Part shown: positions 32,481-52,612 of the stretch, one piece after another
How the letters are laid out: every line of letters begins with the position of its first letter
Position numbering within the stretch: the first letter of the stretch is position 1
Assembly (NCBI GenBank): GCA_026982655.1
Contig: JALSGO010000083.1
Span: 30-64,029 of the forward strand
Length of the DNA stretch: 64,000 nucleotides
Origin: Candidatus Bipolaricaulota bacterium
GTDB lineage: Bacteria > Bipolaricaulota > Bipolaricaulia > RBG-16-55-9
Direction: 5' to 3'
Position numbers and translations under genes: made by a program
Notes under the pieces: generated by a model
Database searches by the model: none
What the model saw: only the letters and a program-made list of their open reading frames with translations
What the model was told of the DNA's origin: nothing

Positions 32481-32500
32481 CCCACCCCACCGGGGGTGGG
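32481..32500. promoter_or_regulatory. CsoR-type operator 1: CCCACCCC-ACCG-GGGGTGGG
   Basis: Perfect 8-N4-8 palindrome 13 nt downstream of the -10 box. It is one of four copies in the window, and csoR lies in the operon. Confidence 0.7.
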
Positions 32501-35923: not shown

Positions 35924-36238
35924 ATGACCGAAGAACTACTGGTGTTGTTACAGCAGGGGAGCCTGGCGGCCCACCCGGAGGCGAAGCGCCACGCCCAGCG
36001 GCTCGTCCGCACCGTCATCGGCCACACCCAGGGCATCGAGCGGATGATCGAGGAAGAGCGATACTGCATCGACATCTTAAAGCAGATCGCCGCGGTGCAG
36101 GGGCTGCTGACCAAGCTGGCCCACACCGTAAGCGAAGCCCACATGAAACACTGCGTGCGACTGGCCATCGAGGAGGGCCACGGCGAGGAGGCCGTTGAAG
36201 AACTGATGGAGACGCTGAAATACCTGCGGAGCGTATAG
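35924..36238 (+). CDS. csoR: CsoR-family copper-sensing transcriptional repressor
   Basis: 104 aa DUF156 pattern: RLVRTVIGHTQGIERMIEEERYCIDILKQIAAVQGLL...HMKHC, containing the C-H-C Cu(I) ligand set. Confidence 0.88.
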   Translation: MTEELLVLLQQGSLAAHPEAKRHAQRLVRTVIGHTQGIERMIEEERYCIDILKQIAAVQGLLTKLAHTVSEAHMKHCVRLAIEEGHGEEAVEELMETLKYLRSV

Positions 36239-40045: not shown

Positions 40046-40065
40046 CCCACCCCAGGAGGGAAGGG
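40046..40065. promoter_or_regulatory. degenerate CsoR-type site: CCCACCCC-AGGA-GGGAAGGG
   Basis: The left half is perfect and the right half matches 6 of 8, with the same 8-N4-8 spacing. Located 34 nt upstream of copA2. Confidence 0.35.
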
Positions 40066-43190: not shown

Positions 43191-44582
43191 ATGGGCGTAG
43201 ACTTGACGTTCCTCGGCGCCGCCGGGACGGTCACGGGCTCCAAGTATTGGCTCTCGGCGGGCGGCAAAAACTATCTCATCGACTGCGGGCTCTTCCAGGG
43301 ACCGGACGAGCTGGAGCAGCTCAACTGGGAACAGCTTCCCATCGCCCCCGCGGAGCTGGACGCCGTGGTGCTGACCCACGGGCACCTCGACCACTCGGGG
43401 TACCTCCCGCGGCTTGCGAAGAGGGGCTACTCCGGGCCGGTCTACGCCTCGGAGGCCACCTGCGCGCTGCTCGAGCTGCTTTTGCCCGACTCGGGATACC
43501 TGCAGGAGGAGCACGCGGGCTACGCCAACCGCAAGGGCTACTCCCGCCACAAGCCCGCGCTTCCGCTGTACACCTACGACCAAGCGCTCGAGTCCCTAAA
43601 GCTCTTACGGCCCGTGAAGCTCGCGGAGCCCTTCGCCGTAGACAAACACCTCACGGTCACGATGCGCCCGGCGGGCCACATCCTGGGCTCCGCGATCGTA
43701 GAGTGCGAGCTTGATAATAAAAAGATCGTCTTCTCCGGGGACCTGGGCCGCTACGATCAGGAAGTGATGAAATCCCCAGCGACGGTGACGCGGGCCGACT
43801 ATCTGCTGGTCGAGTCGACGTACGGCGATCGGGAGCACGGCGAGGACCCCATCGAAGATCAGCTGGCCCCCGTGGTGAACGCCGCTGTCGAGCGCGGCGG
43901 GGCGCTTCTCATCCCGAGCTTCGCCGTGGGCCGCACCCAGCACGTCCTCTACTACCTGCGAAAGCTCCAAGACCAAAAGCGCATCCCCGAGGTGCCCATC
44001 TACGTGGACAGCCCGATGGCCATCGACGCGACGGCGATCTACTGCCGCTTCGGAGATGAGCTCAACCTCAACGTCAACCTGCTGATGGACGACGAAGCCT
44101 GCCCGCTGCGCTGCCGCGACACGCGCTTTACGCGGACGGTCCCCGAGTCGAAGCGGCTCAACGACGCGCCGGGGCCTCTTGTGATCCTCTCCGCGAGCGG
44201 GATGTGCACCGGCGGTCGGATCCTCCACCACCTGAAGCACCGCCTGCCCGACCCCAAGAACACCGTGCTCTTCGTGGGCTACCAGGCCCAAGGCACCCGG
44301 GGCCGCAGGCTCCTCGAGGGAGCCGACGAGATCAGAATTCACGGGATGACCGTCCCGGTGCGGGCGGAGATCGCCCAGATCGACGGCCTCTCCGCCCACG
44401 GAGACGCCCGGGAGCTGATGCGCTGGCTCTCCGGGTTCGAGCGGCCTCCCGAACAGACGTTCCTCGTCCACGGGGAGCCGCACGCCTCCCAAGCGCTGGA
44501 GGAGCGCATTCGGAAGGAGCTGGGCTGGGCGACCCACCGGCCCCGCTACGGCGAGACCGTCTCCTTGGAGGGCAGGGGATGA
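43191..44582 (+). CDS. MBL-fold beta-CASP family hydrolase (RNA-metabolising metallo-beta-lactamase)
   Basis: FLGAAGTVTGSKY, LTHGHLDHSG, and beta-CASP motifs through to SAHGD. Confidence 0.88.
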   Translation: MGVDLTFLGAAGTVTGSKYWLSAGGKNYLIDCGLFQGPDELEQLNWEQLPIAPAELDAVVLTHGHLDHSGYLPRLAKRGYSGPVYASEATCALLELLLPDSGYLQEEHAGYANRKGYSRHKPALPLYTYDQALESLKLLRPVKLAEPFAVDKHLTVTMRPAGHILGSAIVECELDNKKIVFSGDLGRYDQEVMKSPATVTRADYLLVESTYGDREHGEDPIEDQLAPVVNAAVERGGALLIPSFAVGRTQHVLYYLRKLQDQKRIPEVPIYVDSPMAIDATAIYCRFGDELNLNVNLLMDDEACPLRCRDTRFTRTVPESKRLNDAPGPLVILSASGMCTGGRILHHLKHRLPDPKNTVLFVGYQAQGTRGRRLLEGADEIRIHGMTVPVRAEIAQIDGLSAHGDARELMRWLSGFERPPEQTFLVHGEPHASQALEERIRKELGWATHRPRYGETVSLEGRG

Positions 44583-45304
44583 TCCGCTACGCGCTCTTCG
44601 ACTTGGACGACACGCTCTATCCCCCGGCGGCGGGGCTCATGGAGGCCCTCAGCCGCCGCTTTACGCAGTGCATCGCCGAGGAGCTGGGCATCTCCCTCGA
44701 ACAAGCCGAGGCCCTGCGGCGCGAGTACGGCAAGCGCTACGGCTCGACCACGCGGGGGCTCGCCCTGCATCACCACGTGGACATCGGGGGATTTTTGGCC
44801 AAGGTCCACGACCTGCCCATCGAGGAGTATCTGCAGCCCGACCCCGAGCTGGGGTGTTTGTTGGACTGCATCGACGCGCAGAGGTGCATCTTCACCAACG
44901 CGCCGGAGGCCTACGCCCGGCGGGTGTTAGACGTCCTGGGCGTCGCGGATCGCTTCTGTCGGGTCTTCGCGGTCGAGTTCTCGGGTTATAGGGGCAAGCC
45001 CGACCCCCTCGTCTACGAGCGGGTGGTCGCCGAGCTGGGCGCTTCCGACCCGGAGATCGTGATGCTCGACGACGTGCGGGCCAACCTCCTCCCCGCCGCG
45101 CAGAGGGGCTGGACGACCGTCTGGGTCAACGGGCGGGGGAAGCCCGCCGACCCTCAAGACCTCGACGGGATCTCCTATGCGGTGGGCGACCTCTGGGAGG
45201 TGGCCCGCGTCTTCCGCGAGATCGGGCTCCTCGACGAGGCCCACCACGAGGAGTGGAACCGCTGCCTCCTCCGGTGCCCGCTGGGCCGGAGACGGGCTGG
45301 GTGA
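44579..45304 (+). CDS. HAD-superfamily hydrolase (pyrimidine 5'-nucleotidase-like)
   Basis: FDLDDTLY motif I, TNAP motif II and a late LDD motif. The ATG overlaps the upstream stop (ATGA). Confidence 0.8.
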   Translation: MIRYALFDLDDTLYPPAAGLMEALSRRFTQCIAEELGISLEQAEALRREYGKRYGSTTRGLALHHHVDIGGFLAKVHDLPIEEYLQPDPELGCLLDCIDAQRCIFTNAPEAYARRVLDVLGVADRFCRVFAVEFSGYRGKPDPLVYERVVAELGASDPEIVMLDDVRANLLPAAQRGWTTVWVNGRGKPADPQDLDGISYAVGDLWEVARVFREIGLLDEAHHEEWNRCLLRCPLGRRRAG

Positions 45305-45329
45305 CCTTGCTGGACGTCTTCCGGGGGGA

Positions 45330-45374
45330 ACATGACGCAGATCATTGATCCCACCCCACGGGGGGTGGGATAAT
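45330..45374 (+). promoter_or_regulatory. 45-nt promoter/operator module, copy 1: ATGAC-N4-ATCAT, TTGATC(-35), CsoR-type operator 2 (45350..45369) and GATAAT(-10)
   Basis: CCCACCCC-ACGG-GGGGTGGG fills the 18-nt spacer. The module is colinear with 48290..48334. Confidence 0.65.
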
Positions 45375-45405
45375 GGCGGGCGAAAGGCGGGCGAAGGAGG
45401 GACGC

Positions 45406-46491
45406 ATGGAAGCACAGAAGACGGTCATGCAAAGCCGACGGCGACGCCTCTGGGAGGCGCTCGACGAGCGCCTGGGGTTGAGCGCCCTGAGGTACCCCGT
45501 CCCCGCCCACGCCAACACGCTGGGATATATGTTAGGCGGGATCACCCTCTTTGGCTTCCTCATCTTGATCGCCACAGGCATTTATCTTACGCAGTTCTAC
45601 AACCCCGACCCCAGCCAAGCCCACGACAGCGTCGTCTACCTCGTCGAGCAGACGACGTTCGGGGACCTCGTCCGCAGCATCCACTACTGGACGGCCAACT
45701 TGGTGGTCGTCACCGTTCTCCTCCACCTTCTACGGATCTTCTTTGCGGGGGCGTACAAGCGGCCCCGGGAGGCCAACTGGCTGGTCGGCTTGGCGCTTTT
45801 GGCGATCACCATCGGCTTCGTCTTCACCGGCACGGTCCTCAAGTGGGACCAAGAGGCCTACGAGGCGATGCTCCACAACATGGCCTTCTCGGAGCTTCTG
45901 GGCGGGATCGGGAGCTGGTTCTCCCCAAGTTTTACCCTGAGCGTGCCGATGCTCACCCGCCTCTACGCCGTCCACATCGCGGTGCTCCCGGCGCTCTTCC
46001 TCATCTTGATCGCGATTCATCTGATGCTGGTCAAGTACCACGGGATCTCGCCGCTGCCCACCCTGAACGCTCGGGCGGGCACCTGGGGCAAGGAAGGGAC
46101 GGGCCGCTTCTCCGCGCACCTGCGGCGCATGGTGGGCTACGGGCTATGGCTGCTGGCCTTAGCGGGGGTGCTGGCGCTCCTCTGGCCCGCGCCGCTGGGC
46201 TATCCCCCGGTTCCGGGCGCCGAGGTGACGAAGCCCCCGTGGTTGTTCCTGTGGCTCTACGCCTTCGAGAACTGGGTGGGGACCGCCGGGCTGCTCTGGC
46301 CACCGCTTGTGCTCTTCCTGCTGCTGGCGTTGGTGCCCTTCCTCGACCGCAGCCCCTATCTGGCACCCCGAAAGCGACCCGTAACCGTCACGCTCGGCGT
46401 GGTGCTGTTGCTCTTTTTGGTCGGGTTGAGCGTGTACGTGGCCCTCACCCCGCCGGTGAGCCACATCCAAGGGCAAGGGATGGGAGGTTGA
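45406..46491 (+). CDS. cytochrome b (fused N- and C-terminal domains), paralogue 1
   Basis: RSIHYWTANLVVVTVLLHLLRIFF (H-x13-H), YAVHIAVLPALFLILIAIHLM (H-x14-H), and KPPWLFLWLYAFEN at the PEWY position. Start at ATG 45406 (GAAGGAGGG RBS); the upstream ATG 45373 lies inside the -10 box. Confidence 0.88.
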   Translation: MEAQKTVMQSRRRRLWEALDERLGLSALRYPVPAHANTLGYMLGGITLFGFLILIATGIYLTQFYNPDPSQAHDSVVYLVEQTTFGDLVRSIHYWTANLVVVTVLLHLLRIFFAGAYKRPREANWLVGLALLAITIGFVFTGTVLKWDQEAYEAMLHNMAFSELLGGIGSWFSPSFTLSVPMLTRLYAVHIAVLPALFLILIAIHLMLVKYHGISPLPTLNARAGTWGKEGTGRFSAHLRRMVGYGLWLLALAGVLALLWPAPLGYPPVPGAEVTKPPWLFLWLYAFENWVGTAGLLWPPLVLFLLLALVPFLDRSPYLAPRKRPVTVTLGVVLLLFLVGLSVYVALTPPVSHIQGQGMGG

Positions 46492-46495
46492 GACC

Positions 46496-47077
46496 ATGCG
46501 ACCACAGAGCAGTTGGGTTCACGTCGGTTGGATCACAGCGTTGCTGACGGTGGCGGTGGGGATCGGGCTTGCGGTGGGGCTTCCGGGACGGGCCCACGAG
46601 GGCGCGGAGGTGAGCGCCTATCCTACCACCGTGGCCCCGGGGGAGACGCTCTTCGTGGAGGGCGCGGACATCAACCCTAACGGCCCGATCGCCCTCTTCT
46701 TGGAGGGCGTAAAGGGCAAGTTCCGCCTGGGTCAGGTCCGGGGGGACGAGGACGGCGGGTTCAAGACGAGCGTGGCCCTCCCGCCGGATCTCCCGCCGGG
46801 GACCTATTTGTTGGTGGCCGTCGGGGCCAACGGGGAGAAGGCCACCTTCTCGGTGACGGTGGCCGCCGCGGTAAGCTCCCTCACCCAAGAGCCCAGGGAG
46901 CCCACGGACGCGCTCATGGAGCTGGACCGGTCAAGGTCCTCCGAGGAGTGGGCGTTCCTCGCCGTCGTGATCGGGCTGAGCCTGCTCCTGGGGGCGTGGC
47001 TGGCCCGCCCGGAACGGATGGTTGCACCTGCCTCTCCTTCTGCCTCCGCCGCCGAGCCCGACGGGAGCGGGCCTTGA
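46496..47077 (+). CDS. hypothetical exported protein with C-terminal TM anchor; predicted mature N-terminus is His
   Basis: Signal peptide ending LPGRA followed by HEGAEV, a beta-rich Ig-like middle, and the C-terminal helix WAFLAVVIGLSLLLGAWLA. GGGAGG RBS. Confidence 0.6.
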   Translation: MRPQSSWVHVGWITALLTVAVGIGLAVGLPGRAHEGAEVSAYPTTVAPGETLFVEGADINPNGPIALFLEGVKGKFRLGQVRGDEDGGFKTSVALPPDLPPGTYLLVAVGANGEKATFSVTVAAAVSSLTQEPREPTDALMELDRSRSSEEWAFLAVVIGLSLLLGAWLARPERMVAPASPSASAAEPDGSGP

Positions 47078-47103
47078 GCGCAAAGGGGGCCGAGAGGAAG
47101 GAG

Positions 47104-48309
47104 ATGAGCCGACGGGGGTACGAAGGAGTTTCGGTCGTGGGGGCCGGACCGGCGGGGCTTGTGGCGGCCCTCACGCTGGCCCGCGCAGGCGTCCCCGTCA
47201 CCGTCTACGAGAAGGGGCCGACGGTGGGCACCCGCTTCCACGGCGACTTTCAAGGCTTAGAGAACTGGTCCCGCGAGCTCGACGTCTTGGAGGATCTCCG
47301 GACGATGGGGCTTGCGATCAACTTCGCCGTGCAACCGCGCGACTCAGCGGACTTCTACGACGCCTGGGACCGGAAGTACGACATCAGGACCCGAGAGCCC
47401 CTCTTCTATCTGGTGCGCCGCGGGGGTGGGGAGGGGAGCCTCGACCGCGGGCTCTACGCCCAGGCCCGGGAGGCCGGGGTGCGGTTCCGTTTCCACACCA
47501 AGCTCGATCGGGTGGAGGGCCCGGCGATCGTGGCCACCGGCCCGCGCTACGCCGACGGCATCTGCGTGGGCTACCTCTTCGAGACGGACCTAGAAGACCT
47601 TACGGCCTGCATCCTCTCCCAGCGCCTGGCCCCCCGCGGCTACAGCTACCTCCTGGTGGCCGACGGTCGGGCGACGCTGGTGAGCTGCCACTTCGCCGAC
47701 CTCCCCCGCTGGCGGGATCATCTGGAGGCCACCGTCGAGGCCTTCCGAAAGCTTTACCGCTTTGAGATGCGGAACCCCCGCTTCTTCTCCGGCTACGGGA
47801 ACCTCTTCGCCCGGGGGCGCTTCCGCGACGGCCAAAAACTCTACGTGGGCGAGGCCGCCGGGCTCCAGGACGGCCTGTGGGGCTTCGGGATGCGCTTTGC
47901 CCTGCGCTCGGGATATCTGGCGGCCCAGAGCCTGCTCTCCGGCCAAGACTACGACGAGCTGGTCCGAAGGGAGCTTCTGCCGCACCACCGGGCGGGGCTG
48001 GTCAACCGCTTTTTCTGGAACCTCTTGAGCGATCGCATGTTGGCGTTCTTCCTGCGGCGGGCGGCGCGCTGGACCGACCTTCGGGGGCGGCTGCGCGAGC
48101 TCGCCGGGCCCCGTCCCTGGAAGGATCGGCTCTATCCCTTCATCCGGGGAGCCTGCGGCTGGCGGGCCCGCTACCGCGACGAGCGCTGCCTCCGGGAGGG
48201 GTGTCCCTGCATCGGGTGCGCGTGTCGGAGTCCTTCGCGTACGATCTCGAGCCCCTGCGTCTCTTGGGGAGCGGCTCGGTTCCGACTCGACATGACGCAA
48301 GTCATTTGA
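47104..48309 (+). CDS. FAD-dependent oxidoreductase (geranylgeranyl-reductase-like) with Cys-rich C-terminal tail
   Basis: VSVVGAGPAGLVAALTLARAG dinucleotide motif and the tail CLREGCPCIGCAC. GAGAGGAAGGAG RBS. Confidence 0.8.
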   Translation: MSRRGYEGVSVVGAGPAGLVAALTLARAGVPVTVYEKGPTVGTRFHGDFQGLENWSRELDVLEDLRTMGLAINFAVQPRDSADFYDAWDRKYDIRTREPLFYLVRRGGGEGSLDRGLYAQAREAGVRFRFHTKLDRVEGPAIVATGPRYADGICVGYLFETDLEDLTACILSQRLAPRGYSYLLVADGRATLVSCHFADLPRWRDHLEATVEAFRKLYRFEMRNPRFFSGYGNLFARGRFRDGQKLYVGEAAGLQDGLWGFGMRFALRSGYLAAQSLLSGQDYDELVRRELLPHHRAGLVNRFFWNLLSDRMLAFFLRRAARWTDLRGRLRELAGPRPWKDRLYPFIRGACGWRARYRDERCLREGCPCIGCACRSPSRTISSPCVSWGAARFRLDMTQVI

Positions 48310-48334
48310 CCCACCCCCTCTGGGGTGGAATAAT
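48290..48334 (+). promoter_or_regulatory. 45-nt promoter/operator module, copy 2: ATGAC-GCAA-GTCAT, TTGACC(-35), CsoR-type operator 3 (48310..48329) and AATAAT(-10)
   Basis: CCCACCCC-CTCT-GGGGTGGA occupies the -35/-10 spacer region. The -35 overlaps the stop codon of the FAD oxidoreductase gene. Confidence 0.65.
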
Positions 48335-48342
48335 AGAGTGAA

Positions 48343-48669
48343 ATGTCTGCAGAAGCGCGGCGCGGGATCGACAGCAGGTTCCGGGATCTCCTGTCCCTGT
48401 TGCTCATCGGGGTGTTGATCCTGCCGATGGCCGGCCCCTCCGGCCCCTTCACGGAGTCAGGGGCGTGTTCGGGGAACCCGCTTGAGGCGGGATGCGCTGC
48501 GATTCTGCATGTCGCCCGAGGCACGGCCGGTCATTGCCTGCCTTGTGGTGCCGTTGTCCTCCTGAGCTCTCCTCTGCCCTTTGCCTGGGCACTCGTAGGG
48601 GATTGGACTTCCGCCGGACTTGGCAGCCCGTTGGATCCGTCCTTTGTGCCCTGGCGTCCCCCTGCCTGA
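48343..48669 (+). CDS. hypothetical small membrane protein, Cys/His-containing, predicted leaderless
   Basis: The ATG lies 8 nt after the -10 box with no SD. One TM helix (LLSLLLIGVLILPMAG) and motifs CSGNPLEAGC and HCLPCG. Coding status is uncertain. Confidence 0.35.
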   Translation: MSAEARRGIDSRFRDLLSLLLIGVLILPMAGPSGPFTESGACSGNPLEAGCAAILHVARGTAGHCLPCGAVVLLSSPLPFAWALVGDWTSAGLGSPLDPSFVPWRPPA

Positions 48670-48784
48670 CCTCCGCTTCGTTCTTTTGCCCGTGCCCGCG
48701 GTCCTTTGAACGGGCCTTCGTCGGCCTAAGGGATCGTACGTATCTCAACTCCATCTGCAATCTGCACAAGGAGCAGGAGGTCGA

Positions 48785-49270
48785 GTGCCAATGCCTAAGA
48801 AGACGAACAAGGATCGGAAGGTCAAGCAGCAGCGTCTACTCCGGCAGGGGGCGGCCGGGGGCTGGCGGCCCTGGGCCTTTGGGGCCGTCACCCTCGGGGT
48901 GCTAACAGCCGCGTTTGGGCTGCTCTTGCCGAAGTTCTTCGCCGACGGTCCCGCAGCGGACGGGGAGGCCAACGTCATCCTGGTCGAAGCGGACATGGCC
49001 GGGCTCTATCCCAAGGAGATCCGGGTCAAGGCCGGGGAGCCCGTGACCATCCGCCTGCGCAGCTTGGACAACCGGTTCCACCTGGACGGGGGAGGCAAGC
49101 ACCAGTTCGCCATCGACGAGCTGGGGGTCAACATCATCGCTCCGCCGCTCGGCACGGCCGAGGCCACCTTCATCCCTACGGAACCGGGTGAATACGAGTT
49201 CTACTGCGACATCTGCTGCGGCGGGCGGGCCAACCCGACCATGGTAGGGAGGCTGATCGTCGAGCTATGA
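48785..49270 (+). CDS. cupredoxin-fold (Cupredoxin_1-like) membrane-anchored protein 2
   Basis: TM anchor and C-terminal PGEYEFYCDICCGGRANPTMVGRLIV. GGAGCAGGAGG RBS. An alternative ATG lies at 48791. Confidence 0.75.
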   Translation: MPMPKKTNKDRKVKQQRLLRQGAAGGWRPWAFGAVTLGVLTAAFGLLLPKFFADGPAADGEANVILVEADMAGLYPKEIRVKAGEPVTIRLRSLDNRFHLDGGGKHQFAIDELGVNIIAPPLGTAEATFIPTEPGEYEFYCDICCGGRANPTMVGRLIVEL

Positions 49271-50109
49271 GCGCTCTGACCCAGATCTCCGCGCGCAAGG
49301 TGGTGCTGGCCTCGGCGATCGCCCTGGGGGTGATCGCCGCCGCGGTCTTCTTGGGGCTGCGGCACCCCTCCGCCCAGGCCGTCCCGATGAGCCCGCTCCT
49401 CCCGGCGGTGACGCTGGGGACCATCGTGGTGGCCGGGATCGTCGACGGGATCAACCCCTGTGCCTTCACGGTGCTCCTACTGTTCGTTACTGCCCTGCTC
49501 GCGAGCCTGCAAACCCGCAGCGACGTCGGGATCGCCGAGAACGTGGGGGCCACGCGCGCCCGGATCGTGGGGCTCGGCTCCATCTACATCGCAGCCATCT
49601 TCCTCACCTACCTGGCGCTGGGGGCGGGGCTCTTGGTGACGGCAGATCTCTTCGTGCGGGAGCACCTGCCCGCCCGGATCGGGGCGCTGCTCGCCATCTT
49701 CCTCGGGCTGTGGATGCTCAAGGACTACTTCCTGCCCGGGTGGGGCTGGCGGCTGGGGGCCCCCAAGGTCGTGGGGGAGTGGGCCCGGCGCGCGGCCCGG
49801 AAGATGACCGTCCCGGCGCTGGCGCTCGGGGGCTTTCTCATCGGGCTCTGCACCGTGCCCTGCAGCGGGGCGGTCTACCTGGCGGTGCTGGCGCTCCTCT
49901 CGACCCAGCCGACCGCGACGGCCTTCGGGTACCTGGTGCTCTACAACCTGATGTTCATCCTCCCGTTGGTCGGGGTGCTGGCCGTGGCCGCGTCGCGCCC
50001 GGCGCTGAACCGCTTGGCCCGCTGGAACCTCCACCACCGGGAGGGGGTCCGGCTGGCCTTGGGGTCGGGTGTCGTGCTCATGGGGCTGTTCATCCTGTAC
50101 ACCGTCTAG
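49267..50109 (+). CDS. CcdA/DsbD-family thiol:disulfide electron-transfer membrane protein
   Basis: GINPCAF and CTVPCSG Cys motifs in TM helices, as in CcdA/DsbD/ScsB cores. The ATG overlaps the upstream stop (ATGA). Confidence 0.8.
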   Translation: MSALTQISARKVVLASAIALGVIAAAVFLGLRHPSAQAVPMSPLLPAVTLGTIVVAGIVDGINPCAFTVLLLFVTALLASLQTRSDVGIAENVGATRARIVGLGSIYIAAIFLTYLALGAGLLVTADLFVREHLPARIGALLAIFLGLWMLKDYFLPGWGWRLGAPKVVGEWARRAARKMTVPALALGGFLIGLCTVPCSGAVYLAVLALLSTQPTATAFGYLVLYNLMFILPLVGVLAVAASRPALNRLARWNLHHREGVRLALGSGVVLMGLFILYTV

Positions 50110-50159
50110 CTGGGAAACGGAGAACGGATCGAGAACCCAGGAGAAAGGAGGAAGCGGCG

Positions 50160-50480
50160 GTGAACAACCATCATGCGGGAGGCGGCAAGCCCTGCCACGT
50201 CGAGCGGCTGGAGAAAGAGGTGGACATGGAGGCGCTGCGCTCCACCCGGGTCAGCATCCTGGCGGTGACGGGGATGGGGTGTCCCAACTGTGCCCTGCGG
50301 GTGCACAACGCGCTCCTCGCCCTCCCCGGCGTCCATCGGGTGGACGTGGAGCTGGAGGCCGAGCGGGCGATCGTCTACTGGGACCCGACCGCCCTGCAGC
50401 CGGAGAGGCTGATCGAGGCGGTCTCCCAGGCTGCGGCGGGGACCCCTCACGACTACCGGGCGTACTTCGTGAAGCCGTAG
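50160..50480 (+). CDS. HMA-domain metallochaperone-like protein with His-rich N-terminus
   Basis: VTGMGCPNCALRVHNAL (GMxCxxC) and the N-terminal NNHHAGGGKPCH. GTG start 9 nt after AGGAGG. Confidence 0.75.
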   Translation: MNNHHAGGGKPCHVERLEKEVDMEALRSTRVSILAVTGMGCPNCALRVHNALLALPGVHRVDVELEAERAIVYWDPTALQPERLIEAVSQAAAGTPHDYRAYFVKP

Positions 50481-50642
50481 CGGAGCCACAGACGCAGAGC
50501 GGGGCTGCCCGGGGCCCGAGTCACCGTCGTCGCATCGGCTTCCACCTCCGCCCCGGGCAGCTCCCCGCCCTGCCCGCCGACGGCAGGGAGCTCCCACACA
50601 CGGGGAGAGAAGGAGAAAGGGAAGACACAAGGAGGGATTTCC

Positions 50643-51173
50643 ATGGACCTTAGGCTCATCGCCGTTGCGATCGTCTCCTTGGCGCTGGGGTTCCTCTTGG
50701 CCTCCGGCCTGCGCCCGGAGGTCGGGGTGGGGCCTTCGGAGGCGGAGCGGATCTTGGAGCGGCTGCGGCGCGAGATCATCCCGGAGGAGGGCAGCCCCAC
50801 GGGCTACGGGATCGCCTTCAGCGAGGCGGGCTACCAGACCCTGGTGGCCAAGAACCGCACACTCAGCGTCCCGCCCGAGCGGGCGGACGACTTCGAGGGC
50901 CTGGACATGAGCCTGCCCTGCTGTCCCTTCCAGAGCCCGAGCGTCGACGAGGCGAAGAACTGCCCGTGCGAGCACCATCAGGCGCTCTACGGGCTGGCCA
51001 AGTGGCTCCTCCAAGAAGACTATCCCGCAGACCGGGTCCAGGAGGAGGTGGCGCGCTGGAGCCGCTACCTCTTCCCCAAGGAGGCGCTGCGGGCGGAGAT
51101 GGAGCGGCGGGCGAAGCTCGATCCCGCCGTCGAAGCCGCCCTGGAGGAGCTCAAGGCCAAGGGGAAGTGCTAG
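50643..51173 (+). CDS. membrane-anchored Cys/His-rich hypothetical protein (LPCCPF...NCPCEHH)
   Basis: N-terminal TM helix and a clustered Cys/His motif reminiscent of the PCYCGC-motif family (recalled with low certainty). AAGGAGGGA RBS. Confidence 0.6.
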   Translation: MDLRLIAVAIVSLALGFLLASGLRPEVGVGPSEAERILERLRREIIPEEGSPTGYGIAFSEAGYQTLVAKNRTLSVPPERADDFEGLDMSLPCCPFQSPSVDEAKNCPCEHHQALYGLAKWLLQEDYPADRVQEEVARWSRYLFPKEALRAEMERRAKLDPAVEAALEELKAKGKC

Positions 51174-51227
51174 GCCGATTGGAACAGGGACGACCCGACG
51201 AGATCGAGGACGAGGAGGCGAGCGACG

Positions 51228-52541
51228 ATGATGGCATCCACAGCCGAACCGGCGGAAACGGAACCCCGACGGGGCGGGGGCCTGGGGAAGAGCCTTCGGG
51301 AGCGCTGGGCGCTCTGGACCCTGGGGCTGTTCGCCCTGCTGATCGTAGGGCTCTTCTTCTTCTACCGCCCGCCCATGGAGGAGAGCATCACGGGGGACAC
51401 CTTCCACCCCATCCGCGGGCTGATCGGCTTCCCCCACGGCCCGGGGGCCGCCGCGGAACCCTACGACGAGGAGGCCCTCGACCGCTTCGTGGAGGAGACG
51501 ATCGCGGAGACCTACGCCAAGGCGCGCATCGATCAGATCAAGCTCCTCCTCATGGGGCTCCTCATCGGCTTGATCCCGCTGGGCTATTACCGCGGTCGGT
51601 CGGACCGCCTAAAGCGCCTGGGACAGCGGGTCAACAAGATCTGGGACCCCTACACCTTCGGCACCGTCTCGGGGCTCCTTTTGGTGGGGGTGATCATCCC
51701 TACGGGGACGGTCCTCGGCCTCTTCTACAGCGCCGACGCGGAGAAGCTCTACGAGAGCATGGCGGGCATCGTGGGGAACCCCATCCTGAGTTTCCTGCGC
51801 AACCTCCACCTCTGGGCCTCGGAGGCGTTCTTGCTCTTCCTGTTCCTGCACACGGCCCGGATCGTCTCCACGCGGGCCTACTTTGCGGGACGCAAGCTCG
51901 TCTGGGTTCTGGGTGTCGTGCTGCTTGTGATCAGCTGGGCGACCTTCCTGATCGGCACCTTCATCCGGGGGGACCAGGAAGCGTTTGAGGCCTGGGTCCA
52001 CATGATGGCCCTCATCCGCTTCATCCCCCTCGTCGGGGACCCGATCGCCGACTTCTTCTCCGGCCCCTTCGCCGTCATGCGGCTGTACGTCTTCCACATC
52101 GTGATCACCACCATCGCCTTGCTGCTGATTCTGGCACCCCACGTGCTGATGCAGAAGGTGTACGTCCACGTGCAGCGGCGCTGGAGGGCGGCCCTTCGCT
52201 ACACCCTGGGGCTTACGGCCCTGATCGCGGTCCTCAGCCTGCTGGTGCCCGCCCCCTTCCTGGCGGAGCCCTACCACGACCTGGAGATCACCAAGCCACC
52301 GTGGCCCTATTACTTCCTGTACGCCTGGGAGAACATCGGCGGCGCGGTGAGCATGATCTGGTCGCCGCTGCTCATCCTGGTGCCGCTGCTTCTGCTGCCG
52401 TACGCGCTGGAGCAGCTGCCACTCGCCCGCCGGACCGCCCAACGGGTGGGCGACTGGGTCTTCTACGGCGGGGTCCTGATCACCTTAGGGCTGAGCTACT
52501 GGGTGGCCGCCTCGGGAATTGTGGCCCACGTCTTCGAATGA
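51228..52541 (+). CDS. divergent cytochrome b-like protein, paralogue 2, with N-terminal extension of about 130 aa
   Basis: RNLHLWASEAFLLFLFLHTARI (H-x13-H), YVFHIVITTIALLLILAPHVLM (H-x14-H), and KPPWPYYFLYAWEN. Confidence 0.8.
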   Translation: MMASTAEPAETEPRRGGGLGKSLRERWALWTLGLFALLIVGLFFFYRPPMEESITGDTFHPIRGLIGFPHGPGAAAEPYDEEALDRFVEETIAETYAKARIDQIKLLLMGLLIGLIPLGYYRGRSDRLKRLGQRVNKIWDPYTFGTVSGLLLVGVIIPTGTVLGLFYSADAEKLYESMAGIVGNPILSFLRNLHLWASEAFLLFLFLHTARIVSTRAYFAGRKLVWVLGVVLLVISWATFLIGTFIRGDQEAFEAWVHMMALIRFIPLVGDPIADFFSGPFAVMRLYVFHIVITTIALLLILAPHVLMQKVYVHVQRRWRAALRYTLGLTALIAVLSLLVPAPFLAEPYHDLEITKPPWPYYFLYAWENIGGAVSMIWSPLLILVPLLLLPYALEQLPLARRTAQRVGDWVFYGGVLITLGLSYWVAASGIVAHVFE

Positions 52542-52553
52542 GGAGGGCCGGAC

Positions 52554-52582
52554 TTGACAACCCTCCCCGGATGGGGTACAGT
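52554..52582 (+). promoter_or_regulatory. promoter TTGACA-17-TACAGT heading the MMPL2 string
   Basis: Consensus -35 at 52554..52559 and -10 at 52577..52582. Confidence 0.55.
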
Positions 52583-52592
52583 GAGACCATAT

Positions 52593-52612
52593 CCCACCCC
52601 AGGTGGGGTGGA
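52593..52612. promoter_or_regulatory. CsoR-type operator 4: CCCACCCC-AGGT-GGGGTGGA
   Basis: Same 8-N4-8 palindrome, 11 nt downstream of the -10 box and 7 nt upstream of the MMPL2 start region. Confidence 0.65.

Follow-up and report, generated by a model that had tools for sequence, protein, structure and literature searches.

Oxygen and redox state strongly affect both the toxicity of copper and its use by enzymes. Most descriptions of known copper regulons present them as switches with a single input. The operator of the Mycobacterium tuberculosis cso system, bound by the copper-responsive repressor CsoR, has been used experimentally as GTAGCCCACCCCCAGTGGGGTGGGATAC (PMC10601412). In Escherichia coli the consensus site of the regulator FNR is TTGATnnnnATCAA, and 19 of the 23 FNR-activated promoters have their site at -41.5 ± 4 (PMC3688515). 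Here we describe two promoter modules of 45 nt, at 45330-45374 and 48290-48334, in which an FNR-type box stands upstream of a CsoR-type operator. They lie in a stretch of 64,000 nucleotides from a Candidatus Bipolaricaulota bacterium (contig JALSGO010000083.1), hereafter the window, and all positions without a locus number refer to it. We read the modules as dual-input sigma-70 promoters that combine copper repression by CsoR with class II activation by an FNR-type regulator, and give this reading a probability of about 0.55. Both types of site are known; a search covering part of the literature found no paper on a promoter combining CsoR and FNR sites.

Structure of the two promoter modules

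The elements of the two modules are the following.

45332..45345, + strand: FNR-type box of module 1, ATGACGCAGATCAT, with one asymmetric position; centre 45338.5, about -42 from the predicted start
45345..45350, + strand: -35 hexamer of module 1, TTGATC; one T is common to box and hexamer
45350..45369, + strand: CsoR-type operator of module 1, CCCACCCC-ACGG-GGGGTGGG, filling the -35/-10 spacer
45369..45374, + strand: -10 hexamer of module 1, GATAAT; the extended -10 TG (45366-45367) comes from the right operator arm
48292..48305, + strand: FNR-type box of module 2, ATGACGCAAGTCAT, a perfect palindrome within the last codons of the FAD-oxidoreductase gene; centre 48298.5
48306..48311, + strand: -35 hexamer of module 2, TTGACC, overlapping the TGA stop codon (48307-48309) of the FAD-oxidoreductase open reading frame (ORF)
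48310..48329, + strand: CsoR-type operator of module 2, CCCACCCC-CTCT-GGGGTGGA, filling the -35/-10 spacer
48329..48334, + strand: -10 hexamer of module 2, AATAAT, from the promoter scan

The boxes read ATGAC-GCAG-ATCAT in module 1 and ATGAC-GCAA-GTCAT in module 2. An earlier description of this stretch made from the letters alone, here called the sequence-only reading, had reported two modules of equal length that align without gaps and are mostly identical, a perfect palindrome abutting the -35 hexamer in the second copy, a palindrome centre about 42 nt before the predicted start, and a second -35 hexamer that overlaps the stop codon of the upstream gene. All of this was borne out: 35 of the 45 positions are identical in an ungapped alignment, the second box ends at 48305 and its -35 hexamer begins at 48306, and that hexamer (48306-48311) covers the TGA at 48307-48309. 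In both modules the centre of the box lies 30.5 nt 5′ of the first -10 base, which places it at -41.5 to -42.5 if transcription is taken to start 6-7 nt past the -10 hexamer. The similarity of the modules is sharp-edged, as the 60 nt on either side of both are identical at the random level only.

Searches of the window set the modules apart from the remaining sequence. A degenerate 28-nt pattern, comprising the palindrome, the -35 hexamer and the left operator arm, matched twice, at the two modules, with an expectation of 0.00 (100 shuffles). The palindrome ATGAC-N4-GTCAT with at most one mismatch was found four times (0.61 expected), the two best matches being the modules. The shorter core TGAY-N4-RTCA was found six times (1.33 expected); the four matches outside the modules are intragenic, so a wider regulon is not visible within the 64 kb. 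A consensus promoter scan of 44800-49000 made exactly two calls (0.3 expected), TTGATC-18-GATAAT (45345-45374) and TTGACC-17-AATAAT (48306-48334). Both core promoters score 9-10 of 12 and in addition have the extended -10 TG.

Like the class II FNR promoters of E. coli, the modules have a 14-bp 5-N4-5 repeat, whose core TGAT/TGAC-N4-ATCA/GTCA contains the TGA-N6-TCA of FNR sites, and this repeat, which abuts the -35 hexamer, would be centred approximately 41.5-42.5 nt before the predicted start. Unlike them, they have A...T and not T...A as the outermost base pair of the repeat, and their -35/-10 spacer holds the operator of a second regulator.

That operator is near-identical to the M. tuberculosis CsoR operator, with the same CCCACCCC-N4-GGGGTGGG inverted repeat and GATA flank, and forms a C-tract/G-tract inverted repeat over the core promoter. 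As in other CsoR systems, P-type ATPases and further copper genes stand behind similar operators. The protein presumed to act as repressor at these operators is a CsoR with C/H/C Cu(I) ligands, encoded 9 kb upstream of the modules.

35924..36238, + strand: CsoR gene; PF02583, E = 6e-24; Cu(I) ligands C...H-x3-C (RYC...AHMKHC)

Operators of the form CCCACCCC-N4-GGGGTGG begin at 32481, 45350, 48310 and 52593, and there is a weak copy at 40046. Those without a box, at 32.4 kb and 52.5 kb and in most cases at related loci, follow a perfect TTGACA-17-TAnnnT promoter and lie downstream of it. In the modules, by contrast, the operator sits exactly within the spacer, where its right arm supplies both the extended -10 TG and the flank of the -10 hexamer, and it is coupled at a fixed 5 nt to the FNR-type box 5′ of the -35 hexamer. 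The -35 itself also differs: in box-bearing promoters it is imperfect (TTGAYC, TTGCCC, or none in locus L134), whereas every CsoR promoter without a box at these loci has a perfect TTGACA.

Conservation and origin of the modules

The high identity of the two window copies, which extends to the unconstrained N4 (GCAR), reflects common descent and not constraint. Since even unconstrained positions are shared, their mutual identity proves little and a comparison with relatives is needed. The loci of relatives were fetched through cytochrome b homologues, at the protein level, or by scanning metagenome contigs with the composite pattern. The closest named relative of the window cytochrome b is from a Candidatus Bipolaricaulia metagenome-assembled genome (MAG), with 80% identity. 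The pattern scan gave 37 loci, most of which are one conserved coding sequence matched by chance; the true modules among them are L134, L153 and L157, together with L156, which is on the same contig as L006. A similar layout of a box plus a C/G-tract was also seen at L139/L148 and L158.

The sequence-only reading had suggested looking for further copies, and nine were found in related metagenomic contigs; the window itself has only the two. In all nine the palindrome lies at the same 5-nt distance from the operator, and the spacers are divergent. Six of the relatives, with 68-86% cytochrome b identity (L003 and L005-L009), have ATGAY-N4-RTCAT, 5 nt, CCACCCC-N4-GGGGTGG and GATAAT ahead of a DOMON-cytochrome b operon, and also a weaker second box, centred exactly 22 bp 5′ of the proximal one. 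This distal box is present in seven of the nine further modules and missing in the window, L153 and L157, which represent a high-G+C sub-lineage. L157 is the orthologue of module 2, with the end of the FAD-oxidoreductase gene, the module, the small ORF and the cupredoxin gene in succession; L153 has the order HAD hydrolase, module, small ORF, cupredoxin; and in L134 both boxes and the operator precede genes for a Met/His-rich protein, an HMA protein and CsoR.

In the alignment of the 11 instances, conservation covers the boxes (consensus ATGAY-N4-RTCAT), TTGAYC, the operator and the -10 hexamer but neither the 8-nt nor the N4 spacers. Judged from this alignment, the palindrome is not a mere by-product of duplication, as its distance to the operator stays the same in modules whose spacers differ. 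From the centre of the proximal box it is 21 bp downstream to that of the operator, and with the 22-bp step between the boxes this places the three dyads on one face of the helix. The module is not universal in the clade, as L010/L011 (78% cytochrome b identity) lack it and use another promoter with a downstream operator.

The ancestral promoter would have carried a pair of boxes 22 bp apart (at approximately -42 and -64) ahead of a DOMON-cytochrome b operon, an arrangement that is unusual for E. coli FNR, and the distal box was lost in the lineage of the window. In all of the relatives L003 (9140-10001) and L005-L009 a DOMON-domain gene lies between the module and the cytochrome b gene, and a 70-amino acid gene follows the latter. 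The window (45304-45406 compared) has neither and contains a FAD-oxidoreductase gene instead. Its locus has been rearranged, with loss of the DOMON and 70-amino acid genes and insertion of the FAD-oxidoreductase gene, and with the proximal box and operator now present twice. As the small-ORF/cupredoxin string of L006 has no promoter of its own, module 2 is a second copy specific to this lineage, which originated in the splitting of the operon.

Tandem boxes in other phyla

An operator-independent search of 185,579 species genomes with the pattern TGAK-N3-RATCA-N9-ATGAY-N3-GRTCAT gave at least 120 loci (L012-L131). The loci listed are mostly from Bacteroidota, with 11 from Rubrobacter/Actinomycetota and a few others; examples of the box pairs are L017 1823-1857 and L056 7025-7059. 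Among the genes flanking them are those for the cbb3 oxidase CcoNO (6), tandem Usp (8), Hsp20 (6), ferredoxins, CcoI-type ATPases (4), PAS kinases (4), CBS proteins (4), LOG-like proteins (4) and CRP/FNR regulators, which together form a coherent set of the hypoxia or low-oxygen type.

The association with regulators was measured with a local hidden Markov model built from five of the flanking regulators and applied to ORFs within at most 8 kb of the boxes. The 37 loci of the composite-pattern scan (225 kb) served as controls for the tandem loci listed (880 kb). A CRP/FNR-family ORF was present in 34 of the 120 loci listed and in none of the 37 controls, and this was the only regulator family enriched beside the tandem arrangement at the loci listed. 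At all 11 Rubrobacter loci listed the regulator gene stands immediately 5′ of three boxes in the 22-bp register, and a ferredoxin gene follows. In the neighbouring regulators the recognition helix is of the FNR type, E-x-x-S/I-R, and N-terminal Cys clusters occur in several of them; both are points of likeness to E. coli FNR. At the low-G+C Bacteroidota loci listed a -7 box, TAnnTTTG, begins 23 nt past the proximal box, so that the latter is centred at -41.5.

The arrays of Bacteroidota and Rubrobacter resemble the modules in their half-sites, their 22-bp register and a class II position of the proximal box, which in the modules is predicted. They differ in what they precede, namely hypoxia-type genes and often the regulator gene itself, and in having no CsoR operator: where Rubrobacter has a third FNR-type box at the same 22-bp step, the Bipolaricaulia-like modules have the CsoR operator 21 bp after the proximal box. 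The part of the literature covered by our search held no description of an FNR/cbb3 regulon motif or of a tandem FNR-box arrangement in Bacteroidetes, and nothing relevant on FNR in Bipolaricaulota. The arrangement appears to be common in Bacteroidota and Rubrobacter and could sharpen regulon prediction there.

Proposed dual-input control and alternative explanations

Our reading of the modules would work as follows. Apo-CsoR would occupy the -35/-10 spacer by binding its C4-N4-G4 inverted repeat, thereby blocking RNA polymerase, and Cu(I) would release it and relieve the repression, as expected from the established behaviour of the family. A dimeric FNR-type regulator of the CRP/FNR family, encoded elsewhere in the genome, would bind ATGAY-N4-RTCAT approximately 42 nt before the start, and from this class II position would contact sigma region 4 and the alpha subunit and so activate transcription; ancestrally, a second dimer at approximately -64 would have helped the proximal one. 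Transcription of both units (cytochrome b and its string; small ORF, cupredoxin, CcdA and cytochrome b-2) would then require copper AND a second signal, for which the relatives of the regulator make oxygen or redox the probable candidate. No box accompanies the CsoR operators of the island's efflux ATPases and MMPL transporters, and the AND gate would seem to be confined to the redox proteins of the island (the cytochromes b, the cupredoxin and the CcdA-like protein).

The sequence-only reading had likewise proposed that a class II site of the CRP/FNR type, added to a CsoR operator, may bring a second signal, such as redox or oxygen, to the two units; the pair of boxes 22 bp apart that we take as the ancestral form is not part of it. 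Sequence comparison supports this proposal through the operator itself and the CsoR gene, the conservation of the palindrome, its FNR-like core and the regulators that neighbour the same arrangement elsewhere. We infer the binding protein, the signal, and activation rather than repression at the window boxes. Activation is suggested by a geometry of the class II kind, by the target genes that this arrangement has in other phyla and by the imperfect or missing -35 hexamer of box-bearing promoters.

Several points weigh against this reading. A search for CRP/FNR regulators had been proposed in the sequence-only reading, and the local model found no CRP/FNR-family ORF, either in the 64 kb of the window or in 11 related loci (104 kb). 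The evidence for the regulator family comes wholly from other phyla. The outer base of the half-site is A/T-swapped relative to E. coli FNR (ATGA...TCAT and not TTGA...TCAA). The core promoter is already good and may not need an activator, and a start 7 nt past the -10 hexamer would put the box centre at -42.5, which misses the optimum by one base. The distal box has been lost from the window copies, where occupancy may be weak as a result, and its position at approximately -64 is not a classical class I position; very few FNR sites lie at -61.5 or beyond (PMC3688515).

The alternative that survives best, although we consider it unlikely, is that an FNR-like or other regulator represses, with one or two dimers at approximately -42 and -64 obstructing either the alpha subunit or the -35 hexamer at its upstream edge, as a second brake beside CsoR. 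Tandem sites are typical of some FNR-repressed promoters, for example E. coli ndh, and the core promoter of the modules is strong unaided. FNR-repressed promoters can also have their sites upstream of the -35 (PMC3688515). The same geometry in Bacteroidota, however, precedes the cbb3 oxidase, Usp and Hsp20 genes, which are normally activated, with the proximal box at exactly -41.5, and the -35 hexamer is weak or absent in several modules (L008, L134).

Somewhat less probable again is a site for another family (Rex, Fur-like, LysR-type, GntR/HutC or ArsR) whose likeness to an FNR box is superficial. The outer base unlike that of FNR boxes speaks for it, as does the lack of a CRP/FNR gene near any Bipolaricaulia-like module in the window and the 104 kb of related loci, and the two dyads 22 bp apart at approximately -64/-42 recall the recognition and activation sites of LysR-type regulators; against this stands the enrichment of CRP/FNR, and of no other regulator family, beside the arrangement at the loci listed. 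Three of these families were compared individually. The Rex consensus is TTGTGAA-N4-TTCACAA, the Fur box is a 7-1-7 repeat, TGATAAT-N-ATTATCA, and LysR-type sites form a recognition/activation pair at approximately -65/-35 with odd-length T-N11-A dyads. A Rex operator was rejected, as only TGA-N6-TCA is in common, the flanks being ACATGAC/GTCATTT and position 5 being C/T and not A. A Fur-family box was rejected on its spacing, which is TGAT-N4-ATCA in all 11 modules and not 7-1-7. A LysR-type pair was rejected because the dyads are even-length (14 bp) and there is no divergent LysR gene, only the 22-bp two-dyad layout being alike; the genes 5′ of the modules (HAD hydrolase, MMPL and others) are co-directional and no LysR gene is among them.

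That the palindrome has no regulatory function of its own is very improbable. On this view it would be a duplication passenger, or would act only as a UP-like element rich in A+T or as a weak 3′-end hairpin of the upstream transcript. In favour of it, the window copies agree even at positions under no constraint (the AC that precedes the box and the GCAR of the N4), as after a recent duplication; in copy 2 the folding of the box region is slightly better than that of shuffles (z = -3.0); and the two near-identical boxes of L003 (9165-9215) can pair (-22.5 kcal/mol, z = -5.2). Against it, the TGA/TCA arms, the 5-nt operator distance and the 22-bp spacing are kept down to 68% protein identity while the adjacent spacers diverge, no U-tract follows the box, the hairpin of copy 1 is weak (z = -1.1) and the pairing in L003 is uninformative because any two copies of one palindrome can pair. 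A hairpin or terminator was rejected for its weak stems, its lack of a U-tract and the trivial nature of pairing between palindrome copies. The hairpin of the L003 box pair would fall in the 3′ end of the upstream transcript.

As dual-input promoters, the modules would fuse two well-understood types of site at a fixed spacing and reserve them for the redox proteins of a copper island, and they offer a simple, testable case of combinatorial metal and redox control in a phylum without genetics. They may also hint at the purpose of the DOMON-cytochrome b module, which would be copper-dependent or copper-handling electron transfer under particular oxygen conditions only. A more far-reaching proposal, which we regard as doubtful, is that CsoR and the FNR-type regulator sit shoulder to shoulder on one helix face as a hybrid nucleoprotein array, competing or cooperating in a copper AND low-oxygen/redox gate, and that the -42/-64 pair is a widespread, undescribed promoter class of Bacteroidota, Rubrobacter and Bipolaricaulia. 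If this were true, such a gate would be hard-wired onto the extracytoplasmic cytochrome b/cupredoxin modules of an uncultured phylum.

Organisation of the copper island

The window has approximately 66% G+C and its copper island spans 32.5-56 kb. The island begins with genes for a Rieske protein, CopA and CsoR, followed by an MMPL transporter and two DUF1573 proteins, and then by YHS-CopA, a cupredoxin, a beta-CASP hydrolase and a HAD hydrolase. Module 1 comes next, with cytochrome b, a 193-amino acid protein and the FAD-oxidoreductase behind it; module 2 precedes the small Cys/His ORF, a cupredoxin, a CcdA-like protein, a 176-amino acid protein and cytochrome b-2, after which MMPL and LolA-like proteins are encoded. 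The transcription units behind the modules are as follows.

45406..48309, + strand: transcription unit 1, with cytochrome b (45406-46491), a 193-amino acid secreted/membrane protein (46496-47077) and a FAD-dependent oxidoreductase (~47104-48309)
48343..52541, + strand: transcription unit 2, beginning with a small Cys/His-containing ORF (48343-48669), a cupredoxin (48785-49270) and a CcdA-like membrane protein (49267-50109)
50643..52541, + strand: the rest of transcription unit 2, with a 176-amino acid protein (50643-51173) and cytochrome b-2 (51228-52541)

The ATG of the small Cys/His ORF (48343) is only 8 nt past the -10 hexamer of module 2, so the mRNA would be leaderless or nearly so. Only residues ~28 to 108 of this ORF are conserved in L005, L153 and L157, and its third-position G+C falls after approximately codon 35, which makes its true start and frame uncertain. 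The versions of L005, L153 and L157 have a normal leader with a Shine-Dalgarno sequence. Further along the same unit, a stretch of 530 nt (50109-50643) between the genes for the CcdA-like and 176-amino acid proteins contains no convincing ORF; L005 and L006 have an HMA copper-chaperone gene at this place, and the stretch is possibly a decayed gene.

Between the cupredoxin gene and module 1, the window has genes for a beta-CASP metallo-beta-lactamase (RNase J-like) and a HAD hydrolase (43191-45304), a pair that is conserved also in L001-L003, L005, L007 and L153.

The MMPL promoter, TTGACA-17-TACAGT (52554-52611), has two CsoR-type elements and no FNR-type box. The first is a degenerate CCCTCCCC-GGAT-GGGG in the spacer (52561-52576), placed as in the modules, and the second is a perfect operator (52593-52611) 3′ of the -10 hexamer. 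A degenerate operator half, CCCACCCC-AGGA-GGGAAGG (40046-40064), lies directly 5′ of the YHS-CopA gene, and in L003 and L005 the operators at the corresponding position are perfect. In L007 (2970-3612), a Bipolaricaulia MAG, a CsoR operator is directly followed by a gene for a 195-amino acid protein with sigma-70 regions 3 and 4, which could be a copper-controlled sigma factor.

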